The translations under genes and the position numbers were made by a program. Under the pieces are notes generated by a model. That model did not search any database and was not told where the DNA came from. It saw nothing but the letters and a program-made list of their open reading frames with translations. This document shows positions 13,346 to 60,294 of a stretch of DNA of 60,294 nt, in pieces. This stretch comes from a virus: IMG/VR virus record IMGVR_UViG_3300027499_000002. One strand, written 5' to 3'. Position 1 is the stretch's first letter. The number at the start of each line of letters is the position of its first letter.

Positions 13346-13424
13346 GACAAAGGGCGGGCGCGCGCAGGGCCGAAAAAACCAAAAAACGACCAAAAAAAGG
13401 AATCTTGCTTTTTTTCTGCTGGTC

Positions 13425-13436
13425 GGTGGCGTTAGA
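13425..13436 (+). promoter_or_regulatory. promoter-like motif GGTGGCGTTAGA
   Basis: Preceded by TTTTTTTCTGC. It lies in the gene-free region upstream of early unit 1. Confidence 0.45.
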
Positions 13437-13471
13437 TGATTGCCAGGGAAAAGCTTGGGAAAACGCAGGGC

Positions 13472-15062: not shown

Positions 15063-15260
15063 ATGGCATTGAGTATTAACGCAAAACGATACGATGTGTT
15101 TTGGGTCGGCGGGTCAACCAAGATCACGGTCGAGGGTCTCGGCGATCGAAAGGTCAAGCTGCTGGTCGAAGGCCCGGAAGGTGTCCGAGTCGAGCGCGAG
15201 GCGTTTATCCGCAAGAAGGATCCAACCGATCCGAGATTGCCCGAAAATCTAAAAAAATGA
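15063..15260 (+). CDS. CsrA/RsmA-like RNA-binding protein
   Basis: 65 aa. It aligns by eye along its whole length to E. coli CsrA: ITVEGLGDRKVKLLVEGPEGVRVEREAF versus [28 protein letters not shown]. Confidence 0.5.
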   Translation: MALSINAKRYDVFWVGGSTKITVEGLGDRKVKLLVEGPEGVRVEREAFIRKKDPTDPRLPENLKK

Positions 15261-15278
15261 CGTTTCCTTTTTTGCGTT

Positions 15279-15290
15279 GGTGGCGTTGAT
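15279..15290 (+). promoter_or_regulatory. promoter-like motif GGTGGCGTTGAT
   Basis: Preceded by CCTTTTTTGCGTT. A palindrome lies 3 nt downstream and ATG 15336 lies 46 nt downstream. Confidence 0.5.
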
Positions 15291-15293
15291 AGT

Positions 15294-15309
15294 TTGGAAA
15301 CGTTTCCAA
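15294..15309. repeat. palindrome copy TTGGAAACGTTTCCAA (16/16), operator-like position
   Basis: Intergenic, between the promoter-like motif and the AAA+ gene. Confidence 0.95.
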
Positions 15310-17764: not shown

Positions 17765-17787
17765 ACGGCGCTTTACTTTTTTCCGTT

Positions 17788-17799
17788 GGTGGCGTTAGA
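17788..17799 (+). promoter_or_regulatory. promoter-like motif GGTGGCGTTAGA
   Basis: Preceded by TTTTTTCCGTT. A palindrome lies 3 nt downstream and ATG 17846 lies 47 nt downstream. Confidence 0.5.
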
Positions 17800-17802
17800 A
17801 GT

Positions 17803-17818
17803 TTGGAAACGTTTCCAA
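17803..17818. repeat. palindrome copy TTGGAAACGTTTCCAA (16/16), operator-like position
   Basis: Intergenic, with the same flank (AGTTTGGAAACGTTTCCAAGATT) as the copy at 15294. Confidence 0.95.
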
Positions 17819-18757: not shown

Positions 18758-19087
18758 ATGAGCGCGTTGCAAGACCGTCCAAGGATGAAGTTCTACAAAA
18801 TCCATTTTCGGAGAAAAAAGCCAGACGTTTCCAAGATTTGTTTTGTGGTAGGAATCGAAGAAGACAAAGCCTTCGAAAACCTAAGAGCCTTGCACCCAAT
18901 TTTCGAGCACAAGTTTCGAGGATGGACATTTGGCTACGCCCCAATCTCCGAGAGCAATTTCGAGCGAAGGATACAAGAGGCGCAAGAAACAAGCTTGATC
19001 GATTTTGACCATCGGCACCCAGACCGTCTGTTCGAGGATATCAAGAATATCAGTGGTAACTTTTTTGACCCATGGCGCTTTACTTGA
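18758..19087 (+). CDS. hypothetical protein
   Basis: The internal ATG at 18758 lies directly after the upstream TAG. 109 aa. Confidence 0.5.
   Translation: MSALQDRPRMKFYKIHFRRKKPDVSKICFVVGIEEDKAFENLRALHPIFEHKFRGWTFGYAPISESNFERRIQEAQETSLIDFDHRHPDRLFEDIKNISGNFFDPWRFT
18825..18835. repeat. palindrome half-site ACGTTTCCAAG
   Basis: It shares the right flank CGTTTCCAAGATT with the copies at 15294 and 17803. It lies inside ORF 18758..19087. Confidence 0.6.
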
Positions 19088-19094
19088 TCGGTTT

Positions 19095-19106
19095 GGTGGC
19101 GTTAGA
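19095..19106 (+). promoter_or_regulatory. promoter-like motif GGTGGCGTTAGA
   Basis: ATG 19123 lies 17 nt downstream. Confidence 0.4.
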
Positions 19107-19122
19107 AGGGTGGAGGATTGCA

Positions 19123-19362
19123 ATGGAAATCACACTTTTGGTTGGTGCTTCGGTCGAAGCAATTTACGCAGATGATGCGGTCGAACTGCTCAAAGATCTT
19201 GGAAACGTTTCCATCCGGCGAGCATCGCACGTTGAGCCAGAAGGTGACGGCTGGTCGGCTGATATGTCGCCGGTCGGTGGTCCAGTCCTCAGTGGTTTCT
19301 CGAAGCGTCAAGATGCGATCGACGCTGAAATCAAGTGGTTAAGGAGGAACAAAAATTTGTAG
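19123..19362 (+). CDS. hypothetical protein
   Basis: 79 aa (MEITLL...). Its 3' end (DAIDAEIKWL) is duplicated at 19830. Confidence 0.5.
   Translation: MEITLLVGASVEAIYADDAVELLKDLGNVSIRRASHVEPEGDGWSADMSPVGGPVLSGFSKRQDAIDAEIKWLRRNKNL
19199..19214. repeat. palindrome copy TTGGAAACGTTTCCAt (15/16)
   Basis: Lies inside ORF 19123..19362, where it is read as G-N-V-S. Confidence 0.9.
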
Positions 19363-36323: not shown

Positions 36324-36922
36324 TGAGCCGCCGTAAAAGCGGCGCGGAACGTCGAGCGATCCGCAATAGGAACAAAAGAGCTAGGTCAGGGGCGGTCGTT
36401 GGTGAAGACTGTCCCGGTCTGCCTCGCGTTGGTGACGAGAAACCAAACACGGAACAATCCGGATCGGTGGATCAAGTGTCGCTACACCAAAGCGATACGC
36501 CCAACGAGTTGCAACAATCAGAATCTCCCTGGTGGCGTGAGTTAAGCCCGGAAAACATCGCAAAGGCAAATGCGATGGGGATGGGGGGAGCCGTGAAGTC
36601 GATGATGGACAGGCGGCTGGAACTGCGAGCGGTCTCTGAAAACTGGCCGATAAGCCGAGACGTTCGGGAGCGAATCGTTTACGAATCGATGATGGTGCTT
36701 CTCGATCCGAAAGCAGACCCGAGGCTGAAACAACGTGAGCGATGGATGCTTCACAAGATGGCAGAATCCAACACAAAGCCAAGAGACCTGCCGGTACAAA
36801 TTACAGGCAATACGACGATCACAGTCAACCAAGTCTTGGCGATGCTCGACGGTAGTTCCTCAGACGACCTAGATTTTCGGGACAGAAAGATTCTGCCGGG
36901 GTCTGTAGATGACTACGCTTGA
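36323..36922 (+). CDS. terminase small subunit candidate (by position)
   Basis: 199 aa with a basic N-terminus. It lies immediately upstream of TerL and overlaps it. Confidence 0.4.
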   Translation: MSRRKSGAERRAIRNRNKRARSGAVVGEDCPGLPRVGDEKPNTEQSGSVDQVSLHQSDTPNELQQSESPWWRELSPENIAKANAMGMGGAVKSMMDRRLELRAVSENWPISRDVRERIVYESMMVLLDPKADPRLKQRERWMLHKMAESNTKPRDLPVQITGNTTITVNQVLAMLDGSSSDDLDFRDRKILPGSVDDYA

Positions 36923-38348
36923 GCAAGCCCGGGAAGCATTCGAGAACGCTCAGGCAATGCGTTCCCCGTTGCTGATGGCCGAACGATTCTCGAAGGGCGA
37001 ATGGAAACGGGCTCGGCACTTAGCAGTTATCGACTTCGAGTTTCGCAATTTATTGAACGATCCGAATTTAGATATCCTGATTGTGAAGTGTCCGGTACGG
37101 CACGGAAAAACTGAGTACCTAGCACACTGGGCTCCGGCTTGGTTTCTGCTTCGGAATCCATACTCGAAAATCATCCTTTGCACGAACACGGCAACGCTAG
37201 CGAACAATCATTCGCGGTGGGTGCGGGACAAGGTTCATGAGCTTTCCCCGATGATGGGATTGGCCGGTGTGGACCCAATGAACTCGGCGGTGAAGAACTG
37301 GCGGCTGGAGAAGACCCACGGAAGCTGTCTTGCTGCTGGCGTCGAGGGGTCGATTCCGGGGTTCGGTGCCAACCTTTTGATCATCGACGATTACATGAAG
37401 GACGCGAAGTCGGCTTACTCGCAGCGGGTTAGGGATTCCCAGTGGGATTGGTTCGTATCGACGAGCTCGACCCGTCTGGAACCGGGGGGCAAGTTGGTTT
37501 TACTTTGTACGCCTTGGCATCCGGACGACTTGATAGGTCGGATCGAATCGAAGAAAGAAGAGCTCGACTTGCGGGTCCGATCGATCACGCTGCAAGCACT
37601 GCGCGAGGGGACCGAAAAGAAGGATCCTCTCGGTAGGGCCGAAGGCGAAGCACTGTGGCCGGAACGCTGGCCGGCAGAGGTCATGCAGCGAAGGAAGCGA
37701 CAATCAGGCCACTGGTGGGACTCGATCTACCAGGGCAACCCGAAGGGGTCTTCCATGTCGAACTGGCCGGATGCCTACTTTCAAAATATTTGGGCTCAGG
37801 ACGATGAGTTCCCGGACCCTCGGAGCTGCTACCTGTCGGCATCGTTCTTGGATCCATCAAAGGGCAAGAACACTCGGAAGGGTGACTATCAGGCGATAAC
37901 CTGGATAGGCTATCAAAACGGTTTGTTCTATGTGGATTCGGATATCGAGCGTAGGCCAGTCCCGCAGATGCTCAGGACGTTCGTTGAGTGGAATCGAGAA
38001 CGTCGAACTGCATTCGTGGGGATCGAAGCGAACGCATGGCAAGACCTCCTTGCTGACCCCTACAACGAGCTTTGCCAGGAAATGGAGTACAACGCTGACC
38101 CGCCAAACCTCGTCAACCAGACGGTCAATAAGAACGTCAGGATCGAAAGGCTTGGCAAGTGGTTTAACGATCGGCGGTTTCGGTTCCGGAATACGGCATC
38201 GAACGAGCTGCTGATCGCTCAGGCCAAAGCGTTCCCGTATGGGGATCACGATGACGGGATAGACTCCCTGGAGGCTTGCTTGGCGATGCTTTGCCGGTCG
38301 GTAGATGCCCTGCATGGAATGCACGAAGTGACCGAGACGGAAATTTAG
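36909..38348 (+). CDS. terL: terminase large subunit
   Basis: It has Walker A-like KCPVRHGKTE, Walker B NLLIIDDY and the C-terminal nuclease Asp cluster GDHDDGIDSLE. 479 aa. Confidence 0.8.
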   Translation: MTTLEQAREAFENAQAMRSPLLMAERFSKGEWKRARHLAVIDFEFRNLLNDPNLDILIVKCPVRHGKTEYLAHWAPAWFLLRNPYSKIILCTNTATLANNHSRWVRDKVHELSPMMGLAGVDPMNSAVKNWRLEKTHGSCLAAGVEGSIPGFGANLLIIDDYMKDAKSAYSQRVRDSQWDWFVSTSSTRLEPGGKLVLLCTPWHPDDLIGRIESKKEELDLRVRSITLQALREGTEKKDPLGRAEGEALWPERWPAEVMQRRKRQSGHWWDSIYQGNPKGSSMSNWPDAYFQNIWAQDDEFPDPRSCYLSASFLDPSKGKNTRKGDYQAITWIGYQNGLFYVDSDIERRPVPQMLRTFVEWNRERRTAFVGIEANAWQDLLADPYNELCQEMEYNADPPNLVNQTVNKNVRIERLGKWFNDRRFRFRNTASNELLIAQAKAFPYGDHDDGIDSLEACLAMLCRSVDALHGMHEVTETEI

Positions 38349-38364
38349 TTTTTTTCCTGAGGTT

Positions 38365-38376
38365 GGTGGCGTTAGA
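38365..38376 (+). promoter_or_regulatory. promoter-like motif GGTGGCGTTAGA
   Basis: Preceded by TTTTTTTCCTGAGGTT. ATG 38418 lies 42 nt downstream. Confidence 0.5.
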
Positions 38377-38417
38377 TTGTTGGTAGTTGTATCGAGGTCA
38401 CAAAAAAATCGAGGCGA

Positions 38418-39732: not shown

Positions 39733-39796
39733 GAATGCTGACGGTCGGTCAATGAAAACATTGGAAAACTGAAAAACGGTTTTTCAAAACTGGTTT

Positions 39797-39808
39797 GGTG
39801 GCGTTGTA
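39797..39808 (+). promoter_or_regulatory. promoter-like motif GGTGGCGTTGTA
   Basis: ATG 39827 lies 19 nt downstream. This is the second motif copy in the same intergenic region. Confidence 0.4.
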
Positions 39809-39826
39809 TTGATGGAGGATTTTTTC

Positions 39827-40081
39827 ATGGCAAATTTCGAGTGGCAAGAAGTGTCTGACGTCGTTCGCAGGTGTGTGATTGACGGCGAAATCTGGTGCGT
39901 CCAAAACGAAATGGAAGGTTTTCTTGTATGCGGTCCGTTGTGGTCAACGGAAAAGGATTGTGATTCGATGGCCGCTGCCGAGGAAGAAATCCAAAACCAA
40001 ATTGATGAGCGTCGCGCGGCGCTCGCTGAGTCGAGAGGTCAAGAGTACCAAGCATGGTGCAGAGGAAACGAGAGGGTATGA
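39827..40081 (+). CDS. hypothetical protein
   Basis: ATG 39827 follows the RBS GGAGGA. 84 aa. Confidence 0.5.
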   Translation: MANFEWQEVSDVVRRCVIDGEIWCVQNEMEGFLVCGPLWSTEKDCDSMAAAEEEIQNQIDERRAALAESRGQEYQAWCRGNERV

Positions 40082-42343: not shown

Positions 42344-42387
42344 TAGACGGGCAGTTGGTTCATGGTTCAAGAATCGATGAGGCGAAA

Positions 42388-42822
42388 ATGAAATCACGTT
42401 TCCCGTTCGGCACCGTTGCTCTGCTGCTGCTTGTGATTACGGTTCTCGGTTGGTTCGCATACCAAGCGACCGATCCGATTCCACCAATGCCGATCGATCA
42501 ACAAATCGAAGCTGGCGATGTGGTAATCAGCCAGGGGGACAGGTCCAGCAAGTGGCCTTCGGTACGGCGTGAGTTCCTGCGAAAGCATCCATGCTGCGAG
42601 GCGTGCGATGAGACTGCTGACCTGCACGTGCATCACGTAAGGCCGTTCCACCTTTGGCCGGAACTGGAGCTGGTTGAGTCAAACCTGATAACGTTGTGCG
42701 AGTACCATCATTTTTACATTGGGCATGACGAAGACGGTCCCAGGGGACCAAAAAAACCGAATTGGAAGACCAGTAACCGAAGCGTCTGGCGCGATGCCAG
42801 GAGAGAGAAGGCGATGCGATGA
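42388..42822 (+). CDS. HNH endonuclease with N-terminal transmembrane/signal-anchor segment
   Basis: FGTVALLLLVITVLGWFAY is followed by CCEACDETADLHVHHVRP...NLITLCEYHH. Confidence 0.55.
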   Translation: MKSRFPFGTVALLLLVITVLGWFAYQATDPIPPMPIDQQIEAGDVVISQGDRSSKWPSVRREFLRKHPCCEACDETADLHVHHVRPFHLWPELELVESNLITLCEYHHFYIGHDEDGPRGPKKPNWKTSNRSVWRDARREKAMR

Positions 42823-43277
42823 TCGAACTACGAATGGTATCAGACGACCGAGGAAACTTGCAGCTACAGATGCGGTCGCGAAGCATCACTATCAGTCGTC
42901 ACGGCAGGTATTATCAAGGCGAGTGGCTTGATTGGAAGTCCGTACCGATCGTCCACGACCCTACTCAGTTAGTCGACAGGGTTGAAATCTTCGATGCAAG
43001 ATCATCGGGGGCAAAACCGGACGTTGGCCTGACTGGAAAGCAGCTTGCTGAGCTTCTTGAGAATCTTGCAGAGACTCGCGAGTGGCATCAGGACAAGGGG
43101 ATCAATCAACTCGCAGGAGACATTCAATCGAGGTCTTTTGCCAGCGGCGTAGCGGCTGGAATCTTCGAGTGCATTTCGAAAATCCAGAACATCCTAGGCC
43201 AGCAAGCAGACGAGCAAATTGCTTATGTTGTTGACTATGAAGAACCAGATCCGGACCTACCCTACCAGGGAGATTGA
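42819..43277 (+). CDS. hypothetical protein
   Basis: 152 aa with an ATGA overlap. Confidence 0.45.
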   Translation: MIELRMVSDDRGNLQLQMRSRSITISRHGRYYQGEWLDWKSVPIVHDPTQLVDRVEIFDARSSGAKPDVGLTGKQLAELLENLAETREWHQDKGINQLAGDIQSRSFASGVAAGIFECISKIQNILGQQADEQIAYVVDYEEPDPDLPYQGD

Positions 43278-43282
43278 ATTCA

Positions 43283-44041
43283 ATGAAGTCAACTTGGTTT
43301 GGAAATAAACAACGCTACGAATTTGCCAAGCTGATCCAAGAGGCCGACTACTCGATGCACGGATGGGATCTTTACAATTCGTGGCTACAGGTTGCCAGCG
43401 GGTCGATGCGTCAGGCTTGCCATGTAATGAGAACCGGGGTGAAAGACGACCGGATCGAACAGACGGTTATCGAGCACCAGAAGCGGGTAAAGCATCCTGA
43501 AAACTTCGCTCGGGCGATGGGGGTGCTTGTCGCTGCTCTGGAAAAAGAGAGTGATGATTTTCTTGGCTCGGTACTGATGGAGTGGGGCCAGAGCGATGTG
43601 CGATTTAAGGGACAATGTTTTACTCCGATGCCTGTCTGTCGGATGATGGCGGCGTTAACCATTGGGGATCGGAAGCCGGACCCGGACGAACGGCTGATGA
43701 TATCCGAGCCAACGTGCGGGGGCGGCGCGATGGTGATTGCGACTTCGGAAGTACTCAAGGCGAACGGATTTTTCCCTTGGAACTATCATTGGCAGTGCGT
43801 AGATGTTGACTGGAGGATGTTCGCGGCGTGTTACATACAGACGACCCTCCTGGGAATTCCTGCGGAGGTAGTCCATGGGAACACGTTGAGCCAAGAGCAA
43901 TGGGACACGGCTGAGACGATTTCGGCAGTGTTATACCCAGTAAGGAAAAGGCCAGCGGTGCGAATCGATGAGCCTGTGCAGGATGAGATTGTTACCGAGT
44001 CCGTTGGGCTCGGAGAGTTCAAGCAACTGACTTTATTTTAG
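43283..44041 (+). CDS. N6-adenine methyltransferase-like SAM-binding protein lacking the catalytic (D/N)PP(Y/F) motif
   Basis: It has CFTPMPVCRMM (FTP motif), motif I ISEPTCGGGAMVI and the region VDVDWRMFAACYIQTTLLGIPAEVVHGNTLS. The protein then ends with no NPPY/DPPY-type motif. I use ATG 43283 after the RBS GGGAGA. Confidence 0.45.
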   Translation: MKSTWFGNKQRYEFAKLIQEADYSMHGWDLYNSWLQVASGSMRQACHVMRTGVKDDRIEQTVIEHQKRVKHPENFARAMGVLVAALEKESDDFLGSVLMEWGQSDVRFKGQCFTPMPVCRMMAALTIGDRKPDPDERLMISEPTCGGGAMVIATSEVLKANGFFPWNYHWQCVDVDWRMFAACYIQTTLLGIPAEVVHGNTLSQEQWDTAETISAVLYPVRKRPAVRIDEPVQDEIVTESVGLGEFKQLTLF

Positions 44042-44050
44042 GGGAAGCAC

Positions 44051-44644
44051 CTAGAAGCTCTCCGAGTCTGCGAACCTCATAACGTCCTCTGAATTCAGCG
44101 TGACAAATCCTAGTCCAGTCCAAGCCATAATCCCGACAGCAACGTGAACCAAGTTCGCCGGTGTGTCGGATGAGTCGATCGACATAAGGGAGACGATCGG
44201 CCGCTCGGACTGGACCCCGTAAAGATACCGAGCCGCATCGCGTTTCATGCAGACGCCTTCTAATTTTGCGACGTTGCTTTTTTCTGCACAGTTTCTAGCC
44301 CACTCGACGGTCGAGTAGTTCACCCCGTTGATAAGTCGGACCTGTAGATCGTACCGATGCAGGATGCTTTTGGGCGTTGGCCGGCGCTCGAAGAAGTACG
44401 ACGATTCGGCGATCGTGATGTACCCCTGGGGAGTCTCATGGTACTTAATTGGGGGGATGGTAAGCTGATCGATTCGGCGTTTGAGGCTGCGATCGTACTG
44501 CCAGCGGTGACGACCGGACAGGTGGGCTATGACGGTGTTTCGGCTCAGGCCGAGTGTGGATGCAATCTGCTTTTTCGGGTATCCTCGATGGGCTTGGAAG
44601 TGGATCTGATAGATGGTCTGGTTGTCGCATCGCATGGTGAGCAA
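44051..44644 (-). CDS. helix-turn-helix DNA-binding protein (the only minus-strand gene)
   Basis: It carries the HTH KKQIASTLGLSRNTVIAHLSG. It is divergent from the portal gene, with only 32 bp between the two start codons. Confidence 0.5.
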   Translation of the reverse strand: MLTMRCDNQTIYQIHFQAHRGYPKKQIASTLGLSRNTVIAHLSGRHRWQYDRSLKRRIDQLTIPPIKYHETPQGYITIAESSYFFERRPTPKSILHRYDLQVRLINGVNYSTVEWARNCAEKSNVAKLEGVCMKRDAARYLYGVQSERPIVSLMSIDSSDTPANLVHVAVGIMAWTGLGFVTLNSEDVMRFADSESF

Positions 44645-44676: not shown

Positions 44677-47600
44677 ATGAACAAGATCGTCGAAACGCTG
44701 CAAGAGTCTCAAAGTCTAATCGAATCCTGGGGCGATGTCATCGACGTCACCGAGTTCATGACCGACACGCCAGGGTTCTTCCAGGCGAACTCCCTCGGCG
44801 TTTACACGCAAATTTATGACCGGGCCGATGGGCGATACCGTCCGGTCTACACCAACGAATCAGACCTGAAAATCATCCGGGCTATGGGCTGGCTGCTTGT
44901 CGAGCGGGTTCCGATGGCCCAAGCCTGGATCAACAGGCTGCTGGATTACACGATCGGGACAGGGTTCGACTGGACGATCAAGGCCAGCGATAAGCGACTG
45001 GAAAAGGCGATTCAAGCCTATGTGCGCGAGACCTTAGACAACTCGAAATGGTCCTCGGAACTCGAGCGCGAGAGCTACGCCAGGGAGGTCGGGGAGGGGG
45101 AATGCCTGATCGAGCACGTTTACGAAAACGGCCAATGCTTGGCGGTTGCTTGCGAGGCCGACGAACTGACCGAACCGGCTAGGAAGAACGAGCTCGAAGA
45201 CTGGATCGGAATCGATTACGTTCCTTCGTGGAGCTTCGGTGTTTTGACCCGGGAGAACAGGCCGCAGAATCCGATCGGGTATCACTTCGTCCGAAACGCA
45301 ACCGGAACGGATTGGGATTACGTTACGGCGGACAGGGTATCCCACTGGAAGCGGAACGTTCGGTCGCGAGCCAAGCGAGGTTTCTCGGACTTCTACAAGC
45401 CGCACTTGTACTTGCTGAGGGCCGATCGAGTGCTGACCAACACGGCAGAAGGGGCAGCGACTCAAGCGGCGATTGCTTACATCGTGGAGCACAAGGACGG
45501 CCAGCAACGGCAGGCAGAAAATATCGTCAAGCGGTTCTCCGCTCCGACAGGTCGAGTCGACCCGATGACCGGGATCATGGAACGCAAACGCAAGATGAAA
45601 CCAGGGACACGCTTGGACGTTCCCGATGGCCAAACCTACAAGGCCGGTTTGCTTGGCGCCAACAACTCAGGGATCTATATCGAGGTTATGGAGGCTGCTT
45701 TAAGGCTTGCTGGATCGGTTCATGCGTTCGTTGAGGGGATGCTGACTGGATCCTATGCGAACAACAATTTTGCCTCGGCGCTGGTGGCCGAAGGTCCGTT
45801 CATGCAGGGGAGGCTTGCCGAGCAGAGCCAACGCAAAGAACGAATGCGTGAAATGATCCTCAAGATGATTCGCCTGGGGGCCGGTAAGAGGCGATTTGCG
45901 GCTGTGGGTTATGATTCCTGGGATTCAATTCAGGATGCGATTACCGTCGAAGTGATCCCGTCTAGGATCGTTCCGATGGACCCGCTCAAGACGGCACAAG
46001 CCTTAGAGGTCCAGAAGCGAAACGGCTGGGTCTCAGACAAGACCTGTATCAACGAGCTTGGGCGAGATATCGATACCGAAACTGCCAATGGACTCAAGAT
46101 CGGCGGTGCTGAGAATCAACCCGGTGCCGGTGGTCAACCAGGAGCACAAACCAACGAAAACACAGGTGCAGCGGTTCCGGATCTTGGAAACGTTTCCAAA
46201 ACCGAGCAGGAGCAGGGCGGCGAATGGCTCGGGATTACCACGGTGCAATGGCGTCGAAACCGCAAGGCAATCACTGACGTTCTGACTGATTTCGCCAGGG
46301 GGAAGCTTAAGCGGAATGTCGCGAAGGTTCTGCTTCGATCGATCGGGATTCCGGACAGGGGAATCGAGACCATTCTGGACGACGCATCGGACGGGCAAAT
46401 CGATTCGATGCCACAAATGGAATCTTTGACCGAGGCCGAACGCAAGACGCTCAACAAGCCGTTCCGGACCTCCGGGGGGCCGAAGAAGTTTTCGGTCTAC
46501 GTGAAGAACCAAAAAGGCAACGTTGTAAAAGTCAACTTCGGTGATCCGAAGATGCGGATCAAGAGAGACGACCCTGGAAGCCGACGCAATTTCAGGGCTC
46601 GGCACAACTGCGACAGTCCAGGGCCGAAATGGAAGGCCAAATACTGGTCTTGTCGGATGTGGTCCAAGCCAAGCGTGACGAAGATCCTCAAGGAGTCTTT
46701 GGAGACTGGCGAAATCGGCTGGGACGGCAGGACGTTTGTTCGGGAGTCTTGGTTGTACAGGCAGAACCCAAGGCTGTTGGAAGTCCGCGACGGAGACGGC
46801 GACGGCAAAATCAACGACGGGAAACCAAGCGAAGCTCCTGCGGAAAAGAAGGACAAGAAAAAAAGCAACACTGTGAATCCCAAGGTTCTTGAATGGGCCA
46901 AGAAAAAGTTCAAGGACGATGCAAAGGCGCAAAACTTTGCTGAGTGGTTCGGGGATTCAAAGGTAGTCGATGCCGATGGGAATCCTTTGGTGGTCTATCA
47001 TGGAACGGATAAAAAGTTCGAAAAATTCAAGCCGTCGGAAAAAGGAATGCTTGGTAAAGGCATTTACTCGTCAGCGAAAAAAGAAGATTACGGAACTTAC
47101 TCCGCATACGCAAAAAAAGAAAACGCAGCGGTAATGCCTTTGTATGTGAAATTGGAAAATCCTCATATCGCAATCGCTGGCAAGCCCGATACGTTCGATG
47201 CGAAGCCAGAAAATGATGGCACAATTATGATTGATAGCCGAACAAAGGCCATAGTTTGGGCTGTAGCCAAAAATCCTGATCAGATCAAATCGGCAACCGG
47301 AAACAAAGGCTCGTTCAACCCGAAGTCCAACAAGATCAACGAATCACTCCAAGAGGCCAAAGACGGAGACGGAGACGGTCTGATCGATGATGGCAAGCCA
47401 ACACAGCGAGCAGCACCACCGAAGCAACCGAAAGCGAAGGCTGCAAAAGGAAAGGCCGTAGCAAAGCCAAAGGCACCAAAGCCAACTGACGATGAAAAGT
47501 TTCAAGCCTTTGAAAAACTGATCGCTGCAAAATCAGACGAAGATAAAGCAGCGTTCCGAAAATCCAAAGCCGATGGGGTATCGATTCCAATCGCCTGGAC

Positions 47601-48306
47601 TGAGGTCGCCTATTATGGCAAGGACGCTGATATCATCGCTGAGGGTCGAGACTCGAAGGGCCGCAAGCAACGAGCGGAACGACCGGACTACAGGCAAGGA
47701 CTGAGCGACCAAAACAACGCTCGAATCGCGAAGGAGCTGACACCAAAAATGGACGCAATCCGAAAGCAGTTGCGTGAGGATGCCATCGACGGAAACGAAG
47801 AATCGAAGGTGCTCTATCTGATCGCAATGACTGGATTCCGGATCGGCGGAAAGGGTGACGGCAAAGCCGAAACCGAAGCGTTTGGAGCCTCGACGCTAAG
47901 GGGCGAACACGTGAAGATCAAAGGGGATACTGTCACGTTCGATTTCCCAGGGAAAAAAGGCGTCCAACAGCAACATTCTCTGAAAGATTCTGTTGTGGCT
48001 AGCTGGTTTGGTGGCGTTAAACCTGAGGAGAATCTGTTCAAAACTCGGGATGTCAAAGTCCGTGAGGCATGGCAAGAAAAGTATGGTGGCGTCAAAGTCC
48101 ACGATATTCGACACGCCGTTGCATCGGAACTGGCAAAGGCAAACCTAGCGAAACTGATTCCACCTAAGCCCAAGAACAAGAAAGAATCCGACGCCTTGAA
48201 AACGAAGGTCGGAACGATCGTAGGCGAAAAGCTTGGCAACAATCCAAGCCAAGCCATTGGCACGTACATTGACCCATCCCTTTGGAAAGTATTGCAGGTC
48301 GCATAA
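44677..48306 (+). CDS. portal protein fused to a polyvalent C-terminal extension (PARP-like ADP-ribosyltransferase plus type IB topoisomerase)
   Basis: One uninterrupted 1209-aa ORF. Residues 1-470 are portal-sized and followed by the MuF gene. Residues 590-662 carry the FGD..RHNC..YWSC module. Residues 750-830 contain NFAEWFGDSKVVD..VVYHGT...GKGIYSS...YVKLENP. Residues 965-1209 contain FRIGG..STLRGEHV..FDFPGKKGV..VHDIRH..GTYIDPSLW. Confidence 0.65.
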   Translation: MNKIVETLQESQSLIESWGDVIDVTEFMTDTPGFFQANSLGVYTQIYDRADGRYRPVYTNESDLKIIRAMGWLLVERVPMAQAWINRLLDYTIGTGFDWTIKASDKRLEKAIQAYVRETLDNSKWSSELERESYAREVGEGECLIEHVYENGQCLAVACEADELTEPARKNELEDWIGIDYVPSWSFGVLTRENRPQNPIGYHFVRNATGTDWDYVTADRVSHWKRNVRSRAKRGFSDFYKPHLYLLRADRVLTNTAEGAATQAAIAYIVEHKDGQQRQAENIVKRFSAPTGRVDPMTGIMERKRKMKPGTRLDVPDGQTYKAGLLGANNSGIYIEVMEAALRLAGSVHAFVEGMLTGSYANNNFASALVAEGPFMQGRLAEQSQRKERMREMILKMIRLGAGKRRFAAVGYDSWDSIQDAITVEVIPSRIVPMDPLKTAQALEVQKRNGWVSDKTCINELGRDIDTETANGLKIGGAENQPGAGGQPGAQTNENTGAAVPDLGNVSKTEQEQGGEWLGITTVQWRRNRKAITDVLTDFARGKLKRNVAKVLLRSIGIPDRGIETILDDASDGQIDSMPQMESLTEAERKTLNKPFRTSGGPKKFSVYVKNQKGNVVKVNFGDPKMRIKRDDPGSRRNFRARHNCDSPGPKWKAKYWSCRMWSKPSVTKILKESLETGEIGWDGRTFVRESWLYRQNPRLLEVRDGDGDGKINDGKPSEAPAEKKDKKKSNTVNPKVLEWAKKKFKDDAKAQNFAEWFGDSKVVDADGNPLVVYHGTDKKFEKFKPSEKGMLGKGIYSSAKKEDYGTYSAYAKKENAAVMPLYVKLENPHIAIAGKPDTFDAKPENDGTIMIDSRTKAIVWAVAKNPDQIKSATGNKGSFNPKSNKINESLQEAKDGDGDGLIDDGKPTQRAAPPKQPKAKAAKGKAVAKPKAPKPTDDEKFQAFEKLIAAKSDEDKAAFRKSKADGVSIPIAWTEVAYYGKDADIIAEGRDSKGRKQRAERPDYRQGLSDQNNARIAKELTPKMDAIRKQLREDAIDGNEESKVLYLIAMTGFRIGGKGDGKAETEAFGASTLRGEHVKIKGDTVTFDFPGKKGVQQQHSLKDSVVASWFGGVKPEENLFKTRDVKVREAWQEKYGGVKVHDIRHAVASELAKANLAKLIPPKPKNKKESDALKTKVGTIVGEKLGNNPSQAIGTYIDPSLWKVLQVA
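46184..46199. repeat. palindrome copy TTGGAAACGTTTCCAA (16/16)
   Basis: Lies in the Gly/Gln-rich linker just after the portal domain, where it is read as G-N-V-S. Confidence 0.95.
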
Positions 48307-48500
48307 TGAGCGAAGTTCCGTTCGTGGTCACTGAAGAAGACGAAGACGGCGATTGGGAGCTTGCAGAGCTTGAGCCCGAAGCCGAAGCCAAGCAGTTAGA
48401 GGTCTTGCTTGGAAACACTAAACCGACTGTGGTACAGGAAAGCAATGAGCTTTCCGGTCGGCAAAAAGCAATCCTTGAAGGATGGAAAGACTACCCATGA
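48306..48500 (+). CDS. small acidic protein
   Basis: TAATG coupling, 64 aa, beginning MSEVPFVVTEEDEDGDWELAELEPEAEA. Confidence 0.45.
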   Translation: MSEVPFVVTEEDEDGDWELAELEPEAEAKQLEVLLGNTKPTVVQESNELSGRQKAILEGWKDYP

Positions 48501-48625
48501 TGAAATCACTTTTTGACAACTTCATCGTGTGGGCCTTCGGTGGCGTGACGGCTTCGCTTGCAACCTGGAAGGCCCTTGAACTGACTGCAATGCTGGTCAA
48601 ATACCTAGGGGCTTTGAATGCCTGA
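48497..48625 (+). CDS. small hydrophobic protein (below the ORF-track cutoff)
   Basis: ATGA coupling. I translated MMKSLFDNFIVWAFGGVTASLATWKALELTAMLVKYLGALNA* by hand. Confidence 0.3.
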   Translation: MMKSLFDNFIVWAFGGVTASLATWKALELTAMLVKYLGALNA

Positions 48626-49283
48626 GTTCAAGGAGCGGACGACCTACGAAGAGCGCATGACCCGGGCGATGCAAGACGTTTTCGAGGCTGCTGCTGCGGT
48701 CGCTGCTGACGGTATCGAGGCGGTCAACGCTGCAATAAAAACAGCGTTGAAAAAATACGTCGGGCCGATCCTCGAAGAGATCCAGCGACGGGTGATAATC
48801 ATCTTGCTGCTTCTGTTCGGTGACGATGATCGAACGTCCTCGGTACTCGGTGACAAGCCGGATGAGGGGCCGATTGCTGAGGACTTGAGCAAGAAGGCCG
48901 CGAAGCGAGCCGGGAAGCAAACCGATGACCTTGGGGACCAAATGGCCGACACGAATCGGTCCTGGTCGAGGGAATGGAACCCGGACGATCAATCGTTCGA
49001 GGACTGGTCCAAGGACAGGCTGTTCCCTCCGTCGCGTGCCGAGACCGTAGCGATCACAGAGACGACCACGGCGATATCACTCGGCGAGCGGGATGTGATC
49101 GACACGATCGAGGATCTAGGAGTCGAGATTGATGCTCTGTGGTTCACGAAGCGAGACGAGCGGGTGTGTCCAATCTGCGGGCCGCTTCACAATCAATCGA
49201 AGAGCCAATGGGAAGACGATTTCCCGGTCGGGCCACCTGCGCACCCTCGATGCCGGTGCTTTCTGGTTTACTATGCTAGGTGA
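48618..49283 (+). CDS. head morphogenesis protein, Mu F / SPP1 gp7 family
   Basis: The C-terminal signature is WFTKRDERVCPICGPLHN...PPAHPRCRCFLVY. Confidence 0.7.
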   Translation: MPEFKERTTYEERMTRAMQDVFEAAAAVAADGIEAVNAAIKTALKKYVGPILEEIQRRVIIILLLLFGDDDRTSSVLGDKPDEGPIAEDLSKKAAKRAGKQTDDLGDQMADTNRSWSREWNPDDQSFEDWSKDRLFPPSRAETVAITETTTAISLGERDVIDTIEDLGVEIDALWFTKRDERVCPICGPLHNQSKSQWEDDFPVGPPAHPRCRCFLVYYAR

Positions 49284-49309
49284 GCAGTGCCAGCGTAGAA
49301 TTTTGCATC

Positions 49310-49954
49310 ATGAGCAAATTCCTACGCGAATCCCAAAGCGGTATTGAGCGGGTCGACACCCAGGCCGGAATCATCTACGGCGTGAAGGTACTGGGTCCAC
49401 GGTCTCGGAACGGTCGCGTCTATGAGGACTCAGCGATCCGCAAAGCACTCCCGCTCTACGAGGGCGTGACGGTCAACATTAACCATGTTCGACCTGACCC
49501 GAAGACCGGGGCGCATGTCGAGAGGCCAATGCAAGACCGCTGGGGTGTGCTTCGCAACGTGCGGTACGTCGAGGGTAGTATCTACGCCGACCTGCACTAC
49601 ATCAAAAGCCATCCAATGACAAAGCAGCTCGTTGAGGCTGCGCAGCGATTCCCGGAAATCTTTGGGCTGTCCCATGATGCCGGTGGGGATGAGCAAATCA
49701 TCGACGGCGAACGTCGCGTGGTTGAAATGTACGAGGTCAAGTCGGTCGATGTGGTTGCCGATCCAGCCACGAATGAAGGACTGTTTGAGAGCTACCAACC
49801 GGCTAGCAATCCCATGAAATCACGGATGAAAAGACGAGCCAAGAGAATGGCCGAGATGGAAGTCAAGAGCGATATCCTGGACCCTGTTGCGATGCGAATG
49901 CAACAAAAGGCGAAGCGCATGAAAGCCATGTCTGAGCTACGCAATCAAAAATAG
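49310..49954 (+). CDS. prohead protease or scaffold-associated protein candidate
   Basis: Contains GVKVLGPRSRNGRVYEDSAIRKALPLYEGVTVNINH. It sits between MuF and the scaffold. The assignment is tentative. Confidence 0.35.
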   Translation: MSKFLRESQSGIERVDTQAGIIYGVKVLGPRSRNGRVYEDSAIRKALPLYEGVTVNINHVRPDPKTGAHVERPMQDRWGVLRNVRYVEGSIYADLHYIKSHPMTKQLVEAAQRFPEIFGLSHDAGGDEQIIDGERRVVEMYEVKSVDVVADPATNEGLFESYQPASNPMKSRMKRRAKRMAEMEVKSDILDPVAMRMQQKAKRMKAMSELRNQK

Positions 49955-50049
49955 TCGCGTTAAGTTTTCTGGTGAGCATTTCCCCGGTAGGGTATAGCAA
50001 ATCACAGGTCGGGCAAGTCCAAGAGCCAAACACTTCGGAGCGAATCCAA

Positions 50050-50709
50050 ATGAAAAAAACCTTCCGTCAAATCGTTGAATCCTGCAAGCCTGCCAAACGT
50101 CCTCAAATGGAAGTTGTCGAGTGCCTGCAAGAAGCGATGGACCAGTATCCAATGCTCGGCGAAATGGAAATGAAGCCCGAAGACAAAATGGGCGAGGGCA
50201 TGAAGAAGCCGATGGAAGAAGGCTACGGCGAGGACATGGATCCGGTCGACGGAATCAAGAGCGCGTTCAAGGCCGCGATGATGAAAGTGCTCGACGACGA
50301 TTCGTTGGACACCGCAGGGAAGCTTGCCAAACTGAAATTGATGCTCGCAGTGAGCGACAAGGCATCTGAGGCGATGGGCAGCGGTGCAATGGGCTCAGGC
50401 TCGACCGATGACGCAATGGACTCAGCGATGGAAGAATCCTACAAGGGCAAGATCGCAAGCCTGCAAGAGCAGTTGCAGCGTGCGACCTGCCGATCGTTGC
50501 TGACCGAATCCCAAATCGAGGTCTCCGAGGTCAAGCTTAAGGCACTGCTTCCACTCAAGGAATCCGAGCGAATCGAGTTGGTCAAGAGCTGGAAATCTGG
50601 AAACGTTTCCAAGCCTCGACCCGCTCGAACCGGCTCAGTGATGCAGGAAAGCTCGGTTGCGACCGAGTACCCAAAGACCTCCGAGGACTTCCGACGAGCC
50701 CTTAACTAG
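50050..50709 (+). CDS. scaffolding protein candidate
   Basis: An acidic, Met/Glu/Lys-rich helical protein upstream of the capsid genes. Confidence 0.45.
   Translation: MKKTFRQIVESCKPAKRPQMEVVECLQEAMDQYPMLGEMEMKPEDKMGEGMKKPMEEGYGEDMDPVDGIKSAFKAAMMKVLDDDSLDTAGKLAKLKLMLAVSDKASEAMGSGAMGSGSTDDAMDSAMEESYKGKIASLQEQLQRATCRSLLTESQIEVSEVKLKALLPLKESERIELVKSWKSGNVSKPRPARTGSVMQESSVATEYPKTSEDFRRALN
50597..50612. repeat. palindrome copy cTGGAAACGTTTCCAA (15/16)
   Basis: Lies inside the scaffold candidate, where it is read as G-N-V-S. Confidence 0.9.
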
Positions 50710-51480: not shown

Positions 51481-51549
51481 CCATTCGAAACAAGTTGCTC
51501 CTATCGTGGGGGCGGCGGTAAGTTTTCTCTAAGAGAATTGAAAAGAAAC

Positions 51550-52704
51550 ATGCGAAACGCGAAAACAAACCGTCACCAGAATCTGCGACGGCTTTACGAG
51601 GCTTCGATCCGAGACAACAACGTCGAACGCTTCATGGAAGACTTTCGGCTGGCGCTTGAACAAGATCGAGCAAGCCTTGGGGATCGATATTCGGTCCGCG
51701 AGCTTTTCGAGCAATTTGTTCCGGATGGCCGCGAGGCTGTAGCGATGCTTGCGCCAACGACTTCGGGCGGATTCCAAATCCTGGAGTCTGCGGAACTGGT
51801 CGACACTTCCCAATTTGCGAACATCCTCGGACAGATCACCTACACGGCGACCCTGAACGGGTACAACGCACCGGAGTATATCGGAGACCAACTGGTCGAA
51901 ACGATTCCGACTGTGTTCTCAGGTGAGCGGATTCCTGGTGTGGGACGGCTCGGCGATGACGTTGATATCGTTTCTGAGGGTGCGGAATACCCGAACGCAG
52001 TTTTCGGTGAAGAGTTCGTCGACACGCCCGAGACGATCAAGCGTGGTCTGATCCTCAATGTGACCCGAGAAGCGATCTTCTTCGATCGTACCGGGGTGCT
52101 GATGAGCGAATGTGGTAAGACCGGCGAGCGAGTTCGCGTGAGCAAAGAAAAGCGGATCTTCGATGTGGTCTGCGGGATCGTTACAATCTATCGCCGAAAC
52201 GGTGCGGCTGCGGTTGCAACTTATCAAAGCGAAAACACCGTCTCGAATACGCTTGCTGACTTTACCTCGATCGATACGGTCGAGCAGAAGTTCAACACGA
52301 TGAGCGACCCGATCACTGGCGAACCGATTTCAATCGAGCTCGATACGATCTTGGTCCCCAAGGCCCTGAGCAACCTTGCAGGCCGAATCATGACAGCAAG
52401 CCAAACTCGAAGCGGAACGAACAGCGGGAACACTCAAACGTATGTTCCTGGGAACTCGGTCAACGTGAATGCAAGGGTTTTGACAAGCCCCTATGTTCGC
52501 CAGAAGACGACCAACGATACGACTTGGTTTGCCGGTCGACCTCGTGAAGCTTTCGTCTACATGCAAAACTGGCCGTTGACAGTGACCCAAGCCGGAGAGA
52601 ATTCCGAAGTCGGATTCACCCGGGACATTGTCGTTCGGTACAAGACCTCGGAGCGGGGCGCGGCAGGCGTTCGCGATCGACTCAAGATGTGCCGTTGCAC
52701 TTAA
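51550..52704 (+). CDS. major capsid protein (HK97-fold candidate)
   Basis: About 384 aa, in the expected position. It is followed by the strongest terminator in the genome. I use ATG 51550, although the track starts at TTG 51538. Confidence 0.65.
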   Translation: MRNAKTNRHQNLRRLYEASIRDNNVERFMEDFRLALEQDRASLGDRYSVRELFEQFVPDGREAVAMLAPTTSGGFQILESAELVDTSQFANILGQITYTATLNGYNAPEYIGDQLVETIPTVFSGERIPGVGRLGDDVDIVSEGAEYPNAVFGEEFVDTPETIKRGLILNVTREAIFFDRTGVLMSECGKTGERVRVSKEKRIFDVVCGIVTIYRRNGAAAVATYQSENTVSNTLADFTSIDTVEQKFNTMSDPITGEPISIELDTILVPKALSNLAGRIMTASQTRSGTNSGNTQTYVPGNSVNVNARVLTSPYVRQKTTNDTTWFAGRPREAFVYMQNWPLTVTQAGENSEVGFTRDIVVRYKTSERGAAGVRDRLKMCRCT

Positions 52705-60031: not shown

Positions 60032-60294
60032 ATGTCGCAAGCAACTGCAAGCCGTCTTATCGTTTCGGACTCTGTGACCTGGGGCAGCGGGATCGGGGTC
60101 GCGTTCAATGAATGCTCCCTGGTCGGGCAGCGAACAGTTGGCATCCATCAAGGCCATCGAGGCACGCGCCAGAGGGCTAGTTGTCGGGCTAGGACGCTAA
60201 CTCAGAAATCCGGTGGCAATATTTCCGGGAATTTCGGTGTCCAGGAAATCGATTTTTTCCTGCCCAGGGCGCTCGGTCACGCGGGGGCTGCTCC
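60032..60294 (+). CDS. major tail tube protein, N-terminal part (continues at 3..752 after collapsing the 127-bp repeat)
   Basis: From ATG 60032 there is no stop before the window end, and the frame is in phase with 3..752. Confidence 0.5.
   Translation, partial: MSQATASRLIVSDSVTWGSGIGVAFNECSLVGQRTVGIHQGHRGTRQRASCRARTLTQKSGGNISGNFGVQEIDFFLPRALGHAGAA
60168..60294. repeat. 127-bp terminal redundancy (copy of 1..127)
   Basis: Identical to the first 127 nt. Confidence 0.9.

Follow-up and report, generated by a model that had tools for sequence, protein, structure and literature searches.

Here, we describe a phage portal gene in which a single open reading frame (ORF) encodes the portal protein, an ADP-ribosyltransferase (ART) and a type IB topoisomerase (TopoIB). 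The gene lies in IMG/VR virus record IMGVR_UViG_3300027499_000002, a stretch of 60,294 nucleotides (nt) that was analysed over its whole length and is called the window below; feature coordinates are collected in Table 1. We think it probable that the portal of this uncultured, ~60.2-kb tailed phage doubles as a carrier of the two enzymes, which would be built into the head along with it, freed by a protease and injected with the DNA. The principle of such fusions is known. What appear to be new are TopoIB as portal cargo, a cargo slot with a conserved junction and a retained portal tail, and an acidic partner of TopoIB.

One reading frame for a portal and two enzymes

A search of 5.8 billion proteins yielded 66 relatives of the window portal. 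One of them, P0001 (locus L001, SRR12487030), has the same portal-ART-TopoIB composition, is 79% identical over 100% of the query and sits in the same gene order as in the window; at locus L002 (SRR20698648), from a different sample, a portal-TopoIB fusion is found in that same order. P0002 and P0003 likewise have portal-TopoIB architecture, and no stop codon or frameshift separates portal from extension in the contigs of P0001, P0002 and P0003, all from other samples. In-frame extensions are carried by about 55 of the 65 relatives that have the portal N-terminus. These observations bear directly on the suspicion that two genes, portal and extension, were run together by a mis-assembly or by a frameshift in sequencing. 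Nothing was found in favor of that idea, its sole foothold being that the window is a single assembly. Against it, the same fused ORFs occur in independent samples and assemblers (Logan, JGI, ENA), same-frame extensions are the rule among the portal relatives, and portal-TopoIB fusions recur in other portal families. We regard the artefact reading as already refuted and the portal-ART-TopoIB fusion as real. The exact sequence of the window's own portal protein is not on record in public assemblies.

In profile searches, the portal, ART and TopoIB domains all score over the Pfam curated cut-offs. Phage_portal_2 (PF05136) matches amino acids (aa) 65-368 with 39.2 bits (cut-off 32.9), and the PHROGs portal family phrog_21 matches aa 58-475 with 77.8 bits. 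The NCBIfam model portal_lambda gives 15 bits, far below its cut-off of 172.7, so the window portal is a distant member of the lambda portal family. A sequence search of the PDB with the portal N-terminus returned no useful match. The gene lies within a head-morphogenesis module, with terminase upstream and MuF, protease and capsid genes downstream, and this order is kept in relatives. Two unrelated enzyme domains (ART-PolyVal and Topoisom_I) thus share one ORF with a portal, as is typical of polyvalent proteins.

The original prediction, made from the letters alone, had parsed this ORF much as we find it: an uninterrupted frame of 1209 aa, an N-terminal portal domain, a Gly/Gln linker holding a palindrome copy, a small module as a segment of its own, an ART bracketed by two DGDGDG motifs (starting at aa 705 and aa 896), a Lys/Pro/Ala linker and a TopoIB signature with its catalytic Tyr. 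All of the motifs that it quoted are present, namely VVYHGT (aa 772-777), GKGIYSS (793-799), YVKLENP (823-829), FRIGG (1054-1058), FDFPGKKGV (1088-1096), VHDIRH (1141-1146) and GNNPSQAIGTYIDPS (1187-1201). The small basic module, with the elements …FGDP…RRNFRARHNCD…PGPKWKAKYWSCRMW, belongs to phrog_7595 and has no match in Pfam (E up to 10), NCBIfam or the PDB; the linkers of the ORF have none in Pfam (E up to 10) or NCBIfam. Relatives of the small module occur as stand-alone small ORFs in Pelagibacter and Roseobacter phages and in a Nitrosopumilaceae virus, in the head module in the case of Roseobacter phage CRP-6, and as the C-terminus of an unrelated Phage_portal_3 portal in L030. An assignment of this module to DUF5872 was dropped, as BLAST against the DUF5872/DUF6321 protein of L064 showed no similarity.

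The ART module matches the Pfam family ART-PolyVal at aa 765-880 with 65.5 bits (cut-off 31.2, E 1.1e-17), over profile positions 1-140 of 140. Its candidate triad falls in columns that read H, Y and [EQ] across the type-A ART modules of relatives. The ART clade of polyvalent proteins has been described as H-Y-D, under the name 'Tox-ART-HYD2', and placed next to the PARP and diphtheria-toxin ARTs (Iyer et al. 2017, PMC5512222). Unlike the published clade, which has Asp at the third active-site position, the window ART has Glu. 'PARP-like H-Y-E', the wording of the original prediction, is therefore a fair description: H775, Y797 and E827 are kept, and the clade is published as lying near the PARP ARTs. 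A second type of ART-like module is found in relatives P0004, P0005 and P0008 (alignment A4), in which Lys and Phe replace the catalytic His and Tyr and a 35-aa insert is present; it keeps the N- and C-terminal signatures of ART-PolyVal (F..WFGDSKVVD… and …QIKSATGNKGTFNP). Judged by its residues, this second type may be either inactive or of different chemistry.

The TopoIB module matches Topoisom_I at aa 1008-1167 with 47.5 bits (cut-off 23.7, E 2e-12). From the N-terminal domain through the catalytic Tyr, it aligns to the TopIB enzymes of Deinococcus radiodurans (2f4q, E 4e-12) and variola virus (2h7f, E 6e-8). The 2f4q alignment starts at chain residue 45 (VSIPIAWTEV…GRDSKGRKQ) and so takes in the small N-terminal DNA-binding domain; relatives carry Top1B_N_bact (PF21338). 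The counterparts of variola K167, R223, H265 and Y274 are K1093, R1145, N1188 and Y1197, with the same N(+9)Y spacing, and R1055 is the first catalytic Arg in the Deinococcus alignment (vaccinia/variola R130 via that alignment). The five residues of this R-K-R-N-Y pentad are each kept by 120-121 of 121 homologs. An AlphaFold2 (AF2) model of a 36%-identical TopoIB relative has predicted local distance difference test (pLDDT) values >90 over the core, with 3m4a/2f4q as its top Foldseek matches (E 3e-17) and a target TM-score (TMt) of 0.67 to the variola enzyme. The window TopoIB has an isoelectric point (pI) of 9.5, and the ORF stops 12 residues past the catalytic Tyr. To judge by their conserved residues, both enzymes look active.

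Could the C-terminal domain instead work like a tyrosine recombinase, for example as an integrase or a telomere resolvase, on the phage genome ends? TopoIBs and tyrosine recombinases share a fold, XerH is among the weaker Foldseek matches of a relative, the TopoIBs of cultured jumbo phages give weak Phage_integrase matches, and the window has identical ends of 127 nt. However, all of the best matches, in sequence and in structure, are to TopoIB, and they lead by many orders of magnitude. Within the pentad, the Lys is TopoIB-specific, the Asn is of the bacterial type and the H/N(+9)Y spacing is exact. The poxvirus/bacterial N-terminal signature IPxAWT…GRDxKGRxQ is present, and the simplest reading of the 127-nt repeat is that the assembly of a circular or permuted genome overlaps itself. 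We consider a recombinase very improbable.

The cargo slot, its junctions and a gp21-like protease

Close relatives are collinear with the window portal to ~aa 703-735 and diverge thereafter. Among 65 related portals, one slot holds varied cargo: ART-PolyVal (PF18760), ADPrib_exo_Tox-type ARTs (PF03496/PF01129), Zeta-toxin/AAA_33 kinases (PF06414/PF13671), TopoIB (PF01028), DUF3626 (PF12294), ParB (PF02195) or nothing. Such extensive domain shuffling among relatives is another trait of polyvalent proteins. The shortest, cargo-less portals (727-734 aa) end in …SGRQQQMLDRWKDYP*, with MuF starting at their stop codon, and the same native tail, conserved as …ILEGWKDYP, ends the cargo-bearing portals L003, L004, L010, L022 and L025. 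Because cargo-less and cargo-bearing portals share this tail, cargo is inserted between the portal body (~aa 703) and the native C-terminal tail. The amino acids of the tail are kept despite many synonymous changes (in L025, 14 of 17 residues are identical, with 9 synonymous codon differences); the portal tail is under protein-level selection.

A conserved junction precedes most cargo modules in the closer relatives and every module in the window. Its consensus is [L/F/I]-x-E-[V/A/E]-[K/R]-DGDGDG-x-[I/V]-[N/D]-DGK[P/S/A], followed by a Lys/Pro/Ala-rich stretch. Within the window portal, the pattern [LIF]xE[VAES][KR] occurs at the two junctions only (0.53 expected), and it is absent from the other head proteins of the window. 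The window's two junction copies share only 54 of 96 nt (29 of 39 in the core), which indicates conservation at the protein rather than the DNA level; on the same ground, we reject for this genome the idea that the junction is a DNA-level recombination anchor. Other portal-TopoIB lineages have different short conserved junctions before TopoIB (P0229, P0231, P0235, P0244, P0248, P0322, P0341; P0273, P0294, P0362), of the forms F-x-E-x-x-HPR-x-x-x-G-x-F, GNFGHxGRPGxxGGS and C-G-x-G-x-G-G-F-x-x-G-N-x-C. Conserved inter-module junction peptides seem to be a general feature of such cargo arrays, of which we found no published description. In portals that end in a Zeta toxin, a 900-914-aa ORF follows directly, with stop-start overlap, in place of the tail mini-ORF described below (L017 4262-7006, L019 11096-13840, L029 3459-6161). 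This second large ORF may represent a split cargo array.

A candidate enzyme for processing the junctions is encoded ~1 kb downstream of the portal. This ORF has no sequence-profile match (Pfam to E 10, NCBIfam). Its AF2 model, built from a 31-sequence alignment, has a core pLDDT of ~90, and the top Foldseek match is T4 gp21 (5jbl; E 3.8e-5, probability 1.00, TMt 0.56), followed by the proteases of herpes simplex virus 1 (HSV-1), pseudorabies virus (PrV), human cytomegalovirus (HCMV), Kaposi's sarcoma-associated herpesvirus (KSHV) and Epstein-Barr virus (EBV). Across 31 homologs, residues H69, S131 and H132 never vary, and H106 and H111 hardly do. A 100%-identical protease, P0187, lies on another contig (60,308 nt). 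In x-X-E motifs, the prohead proteases of T4, phiKZ, 201phi2-1 and SPN3US cleave on the C-terminal side of the Glu, and the portal is among the proteins that are processed in SPN3US (PMC5694885). Since the gp21-like family cuts after Glu, proteolytic release of packaged cargo is plausible, if unproven. For the suggestion in the original prediction that the enzymes are 'released by proteolysis', the nearby protease gene and the conserved x-E at each junction are circumstantial evidence, by analogy with the T4 family.

An acidic partner motif and the linkage of TopoIB to portals

The window portal gene is followed by a small acidic ORF whose start overlaps the portal stop codon (TAATG). The same coupled ORF follows TopoIB in L001, L002, L008, L009, L030-L033 and others, and in L008 and L009 the arrangement is kept though their portals are only 50-55% identical to that of the window. 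The tail of the mini-ORF is the same in kind as the C-terminus of the cargo-less portals. The ORF after the portal varies with the last module: it is 64 aa long after TopoIB, 91 aa after DUF3626-type cargo and 68 aa in L013, and there is none after cargo-less portals. The acidic ORF has no match in Pfam (E up to 10) or NCBIfam. The native tail and the coupled acidic mini-ORF, which the original prediction did not mention, are part of the portal system.

A coupled downstream ORF is present at 49 of 52 TopoIB loci, which are not all phylogenetically independent. Over the first 45 aa, the median net charge of the downstream ORF is -10, versus 0 at 202 control junctions, and a net charge of -8 or lower is seen in 61% of the TopoIB-downstream ORFs versus 1% of the 202 controls (Mann-Whitney p = 3e-14). 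The acidic motif takes two forms, [VI][VI]TExDE[ED]G[ED]WE near the window and (L)MD[DE]FF[ED]TVxYD…DWR…PE…EDDDD further away. It is found in three settings: in the mini-ORF, as an N-terminal leader of a further effector (2H/Acb1-like, InPase, Zeta toxin, DUF6321+DUF5872, or MuF with an intein), and as a C-terminal tail in cis on stand-alone TopoIBs. This distribution argues that the motif interacts with TopoIB. In the AF2 model of P0103, a natural TopoIB with a cis acidic tail, the tail has a pLDDT of 55-62 and is not docked with confidence. A conserved acidic partner of TopoIB appears new, and the interaction, proposed from sequence, is putative.

A different role for the mini-ORF would follow if the C-terminal modules were toxins with which phages or bacteria compete, in which case the acidic protein could be the cognate immunity protein that guards the producer against TopoIB. 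Polymorphic toxins have just such a conserved N-terminal carrier followed by variable C-terminal modules, the downstream ORF co-varies with the last module, and the ORF is acidic where TopoIB is basic. However, the downstream ORF is not the separate, dedicated cognate immunity gene that marks toxin-immunity systems. The acidic motif occurs in cis on stand-alone TopoIBs and leads effector proteins (2H, InPase, Zeta toxin, MuF), unlike immunity proteins, and these placements led us to reject the acidic ORF as a classical immunity protein. Additionally, there are no prophage matches in 185,579 reference genomes, and TopoIB is no known toxin domain in the MuF-toxin survey (PMC5576092). We find a toxin-immunity system improbable.

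How widespread is the association of TopoIB with portals? An exhaustive HMMER search of 1.84 billion cluster representatives returned 2,911 TopoIB relatives at E ≤ 1e-3. Among the best 150, 76 are at least 600 aa long, nine are at least 2,000 aa (up to 6,399 aa), and 34 have the catalytic Tyr at most 25 residues from the C-terminus. A portal domain was found in 20 of 58 long TopoIB representatives (Portal_Mu in eight, Phage_portal_3 in seven, Phage_portal_2 in four and Phage_portal in one), and MuF in five of the 58; others carry InPase, ART, ddrB-ParB, 2H, prohead protease or DNA ligase. A scan of IMG/VR with the TopoIB alignment gave 80 loci. In the IMG/VR phage subset, TopoIB is fused to Phage_portal_2 and Phage_portal_3 portals, including portal-Zeta toxin-TopoIB and portal-2H-TopoIB arrays, and adjoins portal genes of the HK97 type (Phage_portal) and the SPP1 type (SPP1_portal). 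On long contigs, the nearest TopoIBs that stand alone immediately follow portals of other families and precede MuF, each with a coupled acidic ORF that bears a related motif (L030, Phage_portal_3; L031 and L032, Portal_Mu). TopoIB and the acidic motif form a conserved unit beside portals of five Pfam families.

The original prediction called virion-packaged TopoIB rare in phages. TopoIB is indeed rare in cultured phages, with 18 of 50,697 records, mostly of jumbo phages; in metagenomes, by contrast, portal-linked TopoIB is common. No recognizable portal lies beside TopoIB in the three cultured-phage records examined (two jumbo phages and one 89-kb Bacteroides phage). The window portal has no relative in 185,579 reference genomes, and the sole hint of a host is a partial protease homolog in a metagenome-assembled genome of Planctomycetota. 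Inteins are present in head-module genes of some TopoIB phages (large terminase, L035 585-3005; MuF, L031 6901-9297 and L070 2104-4026).

Portal C-termini face the capsid interior. Given this usual orientation and the covalent attachment to the portal, the cargo would be packaged, with 12 copies of each enzyme expected per procapsid. In the explanation that we favor, the gp21-like protease would cut after the junction Glu residues, E702 and E893, freeing ART and TopoIB as internal head proteins; from an uncut portal of 133 kDa, cleavage would yield an ART fragment of ~21 kDa and a TopoIB fragment of ~35 kDa. The freed enzymes would exit the capsid along with the DNA. ART would then modify host targets, like T4 Alt, and TopoIB would relax supercoils on the incoming genome or on host DNA, like the poxvirus virion TopoIB. 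The acidic peptide would bind the basic TopoIB, as tether or inhibitor.

It is also possible, if unlikely, that TopoIB stays tethered at the portal crown as a swivel, relaxing twist that packaging or ejection puts into the phage DNA, and that only the other modules are host-directed. MuF is the usual carrier of effectors, yet TopoIB goes with portals much more frequently (20 versus five of 58), and the link extends across five portal Pfam families, fused or immediately adjacent. In most cases, TopoIB also comes last among the domains, at the end of a long, flexible Lys/Pro/Ala linker. Speaking for release instead, ARTs and Zeta-toxin kinases, clearly aimed at the host, occupy this same slot, TopoIB comes after a conserved x-E junction, and the gene of a gp21-like protease is close by. 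TopoIB is also found inside polyvalent-type proteins of 2,300-6,400 aa and in MuF fusions, and no packaging system is known to need a head topoisomerase. A bolder version, which we regard as doubtful, is that portal-linked TopoIB is an unrecognized but widespread part of the head machinery, a portal-crown swivelase regulated or tethered by the acidic Trp-motif peptide and acting on phage DNA at packaging, ejection or entry. Action at the portal crown would explain why this TopoIB clade tracks five unrelated portal families and nearly always ends the polypeptide.

Several points weigh against our favored explanation of packaging, cleavage and injection, among them the dependence between TopoIB loci and the poorly placed tail of P0103 noted above. 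All three steps are inferred for a phage that is uncultured. The predicted cleavage specificity derives from a fold resemblance (TMt 0.56, 20% identity) and from the analogy to the T4 family, and x-E cleavage sites are short. DxDxDG has the shape of a classical Ca2+-binding loop, and the DGDGDG loop could be a Ca2+-binding or structural element without any role in cleavage. Lastly, the ART assignment is a Pfam-based prediction, and searches of the PDB with the ART region, both as a single sequence and as a 7-sequence profile, gave no matches.

Genomic setting and relation to known systems

Table 1. Features of the window that bear on the portal system and its setting
Feature	Position	Strand	Details
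Terminase of the head module (TerL)	36909-38348
Cargo-carrying portal gene, whole	44677..48306	+	1209 aa + stop, ATG start; three Pfam domains over curated cut-offs
Portal domain proper, lambda-type family	44677..46101	+	aa 1-475; Pfam and PHROGs
Gly/Gln/Asn-rich linker	46102..46221	+	aa 476-515; from composition; holds 16-nt palindrome TTGGAAACGTTTCCAA at 46184-46199
Conserved portal extension	46222..46785	+	aa 516-703, ending …YRQNPRLLE; kept in all close relatives to ~aa 703
Small basic module within extension	46420-46662	+	aa 582-662, …FGDPKMRIKRDDPGSRRNFRARHNCDSPGPKWKAKYWSCRMW; phrog_7595 (unknown function)
Junction 1	46774..46827	+	aa 700-717, LLEVRDGDGDGKINDGKP; candidate protease site after E702, then DxDxDG loop
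ADP-ribosyltransferase module	46909..47346	+	aa 745-890; candidate catalytic H775, Y797, E827
Junction 2 and Lys/Pro/Ala linker	47347..47508	+	Junction aa 891-908, LQEAKDGDGDGLIDDGKP; linker aa 909-944
Junction stretch …NPRLLEVRDGDGDG…	Window portal		Candidate protease cleavage sequence
Type IB topoisomerase module	47509..48303	+	aa 945-1209; N-terminal and catalytic domains; pentad R1055, K1093, R1145, N1188, Y1197
Translationally coupled acidic mini-ORF	48306..48500	+	64 aa, pI 4.05; acidic Trp motif MSEVPFVVTEEDEDGDWELAE…, then displaced portal tail …ELSGRQKAILEGWKDYP
Small hydrophobic ORF	48497..48625	+	42 aa, MMKSLFDNFIVWAFGGVTASLATWKALELTAMLVKYLGALNA; overlaps mini-ORF and MuF start; in L003 and L004, absent from L001 and L002
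MuF-like minor head protein, separate gene	48618..49283	+	Phage_Mu_F aa 135-216, 40.1 bits; PHROG head-morphogenesis families
T4 gp21-like (assemblin-fold) prohead protease	49280..49954	+	AF2 model and Foldseek; candidate junction-processing enzyme
Major capsid protein	51538..52704	+	Phage_capsid_4, 65 bits
12-nt palindrome core, starts	9596, 11525, 15296, 17805, 19201, 25971, 39719, 46186, 50599, 54105, 59705

Whether the small hydrophobic ORF that overlaps the start of MuF belongs to the portal system is uncertain. Directly upstream of the portal lies a minus-strand gene (44051-44644, 197 aa) that most of the examined relatives share (191-194 aa). No other sizeable minus-strand gene is conserved in that part of the genome. 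The gene contains a helix-turn-helix-like stretch, KKQIASTLGLSRNTVIAHL; its product may be a regulator divergent from the head operon. Between terminase and portal are also an N6 DNA methylase-like gene (43274-44041; N6_Mtase, 34 bits) and an HNH endonuclease gene (42355-42822). This interval is variable, relatives carrying DUF5131, a DNA polymerase III beta clamp and others there.

The palindrome found in the portal linker is one of 11 copies in the window, against 0.01 expected. Its core is GGAAACGTTTCC and its full form (TT)GGAAACGTTTCC(AA), which contains an AACGTT core. Several copies are intragenic, and those in the portal gene and in ORF 49972-50709 both encode GNVSK. Relatives have the palindrome at the same offset (~+1509 nt) in their portal genes, and in cargo-less relatives the portal gene contains it three times. 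The palindrome resembles an intragenic site for protein binding or regulation. A second repeat, …GGTTGGTGGCGTTAGA…, is found at 13404-13444, 15258-15298, 17767-17807, 19074-19125, 38344-38395 and 39790-39827 (families D3, D5 and D6). Frequently, this repeat follows a T-rich stretch and precedes a palindrome copy by 10-20 nt, and it could be a promoter or terminator unit specific to the phage. The window ends are an identical 127-nt direct repeat (1-127 and 60168-60294), which makes the window a complete genome of ~60,167 bp. The ends reflect either a circular or permuted assembly, or short terminal repeats.

Portal-domain fusions of PBECR, 2H, InPase, Nudix and ART have been published (Iyer et al. 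2017, PMC5512222; Iyer et al. 2022, PMC9503650). The original prediction set the portal fusion against effector arrays that usually sit on MuF/gp7-type proteins; MuF is indeed a separate gene here, but in view of these published cases the principle of the fusion is not new. Like the polyvalent and portal-MuF effectors of those studies, the window protein combines several unrelated enzyme domains in one polypeptide, in the head module of a terminase-portal phage; its ART is of the polyvalent-specific clade, and packaging and injection are the predicted fate. In contrast to those proteins, it carries a TopoIB, which is not among their listed domains (the only mention of 'topoisomerase' in PMC5512222 is a Toprim reference), and those studies describe no conserved inter-module junction, displaced native portal tail or acidic partner motif. 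Our literature search, which covered few subscription journals, found no account of a TopoIB tied to a portal.

T4 Alt, an ART, is packaged in ~40 copies, trimmed by gp21 and injected (PMC9958956, PMC5512222). The window system resembles it in having an ART that would be inside the prohead, a gp21-type protease in the head module, a candidate cut after Glu and, as proposed here, delivery with the DNA. However, Alt belongs to the R-S-E clade and is targeted to the scaffold core by an N-terminal peptide, whereas the window ART is H-Y-E and covalently part of the portal, with a fixed 12 copies expected rather than ~40. MuF polymorphic toxins (Jamet et al. 2017, PMC5576092) similarly have a head-protein carrier with variable C-terminal enzymes, encoded at or just downstream of the portal, with ART common among them. 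Here, by contrast, the carrier is the portal, MuF is separate and cargo-less, there is no sign of lysogeny, and TopoIB is absent from the catalogue in PMC5576092.

Like the TopIB enzymes of poxviruses and bacteria (2h7f, 2f4q), the window TopoIB is a small two-domain enzyme with the same pentad, in which Asn replaces His as it does in bacteria. It differs in being a C-terminal portal module with an acidic partner, in having at most 34-36% identity to the solved bacterial enzyme, and in that its activity and packaging are predictions. A virion-borne TopoIB is a poxvirus feature, which the window enzyme would share if packaged. The TopoIBs of jumbo phages (phiRSL1, Lu11, PaBG, Rhizobium RHph_N46, Xanthomonas PhiXhv-12) are of the same superfamily, with 24-29% identity, and in RHph_N46 and PhiXhv-12 TopoIB is the C-terminal domain of a larger protein (606-668 aa). 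Unlike in the window, TopoIB was not found beside a recognizable portal in the cultured-phage records examined, and the N-terminal parts have no Pfam match. Jumbo-phage TopoIB has been treated only as a replication/recombination enzyme (PMC7824862).

Bacterial TopoIB has been proposed to derive from an unknown group of viral TopoIBs (Forterre and Gadelle, PMC2647321). The large and diverse population of portal-tied phage TopoIBs provides candidates for this missing viral group, and suggests a head-associated role for it. The pairing of TopoIB with an acidic peptide is a new candidate enzyme-regulator or enzyme-tether interaction. Finally, with its slot, junction, nearby gp21-like protease and retained tail peptide, the locus offers a model of the portal as a cargo bay, and this anatomy could serve to load exactly 12 copies of a chosen protein per capsid.

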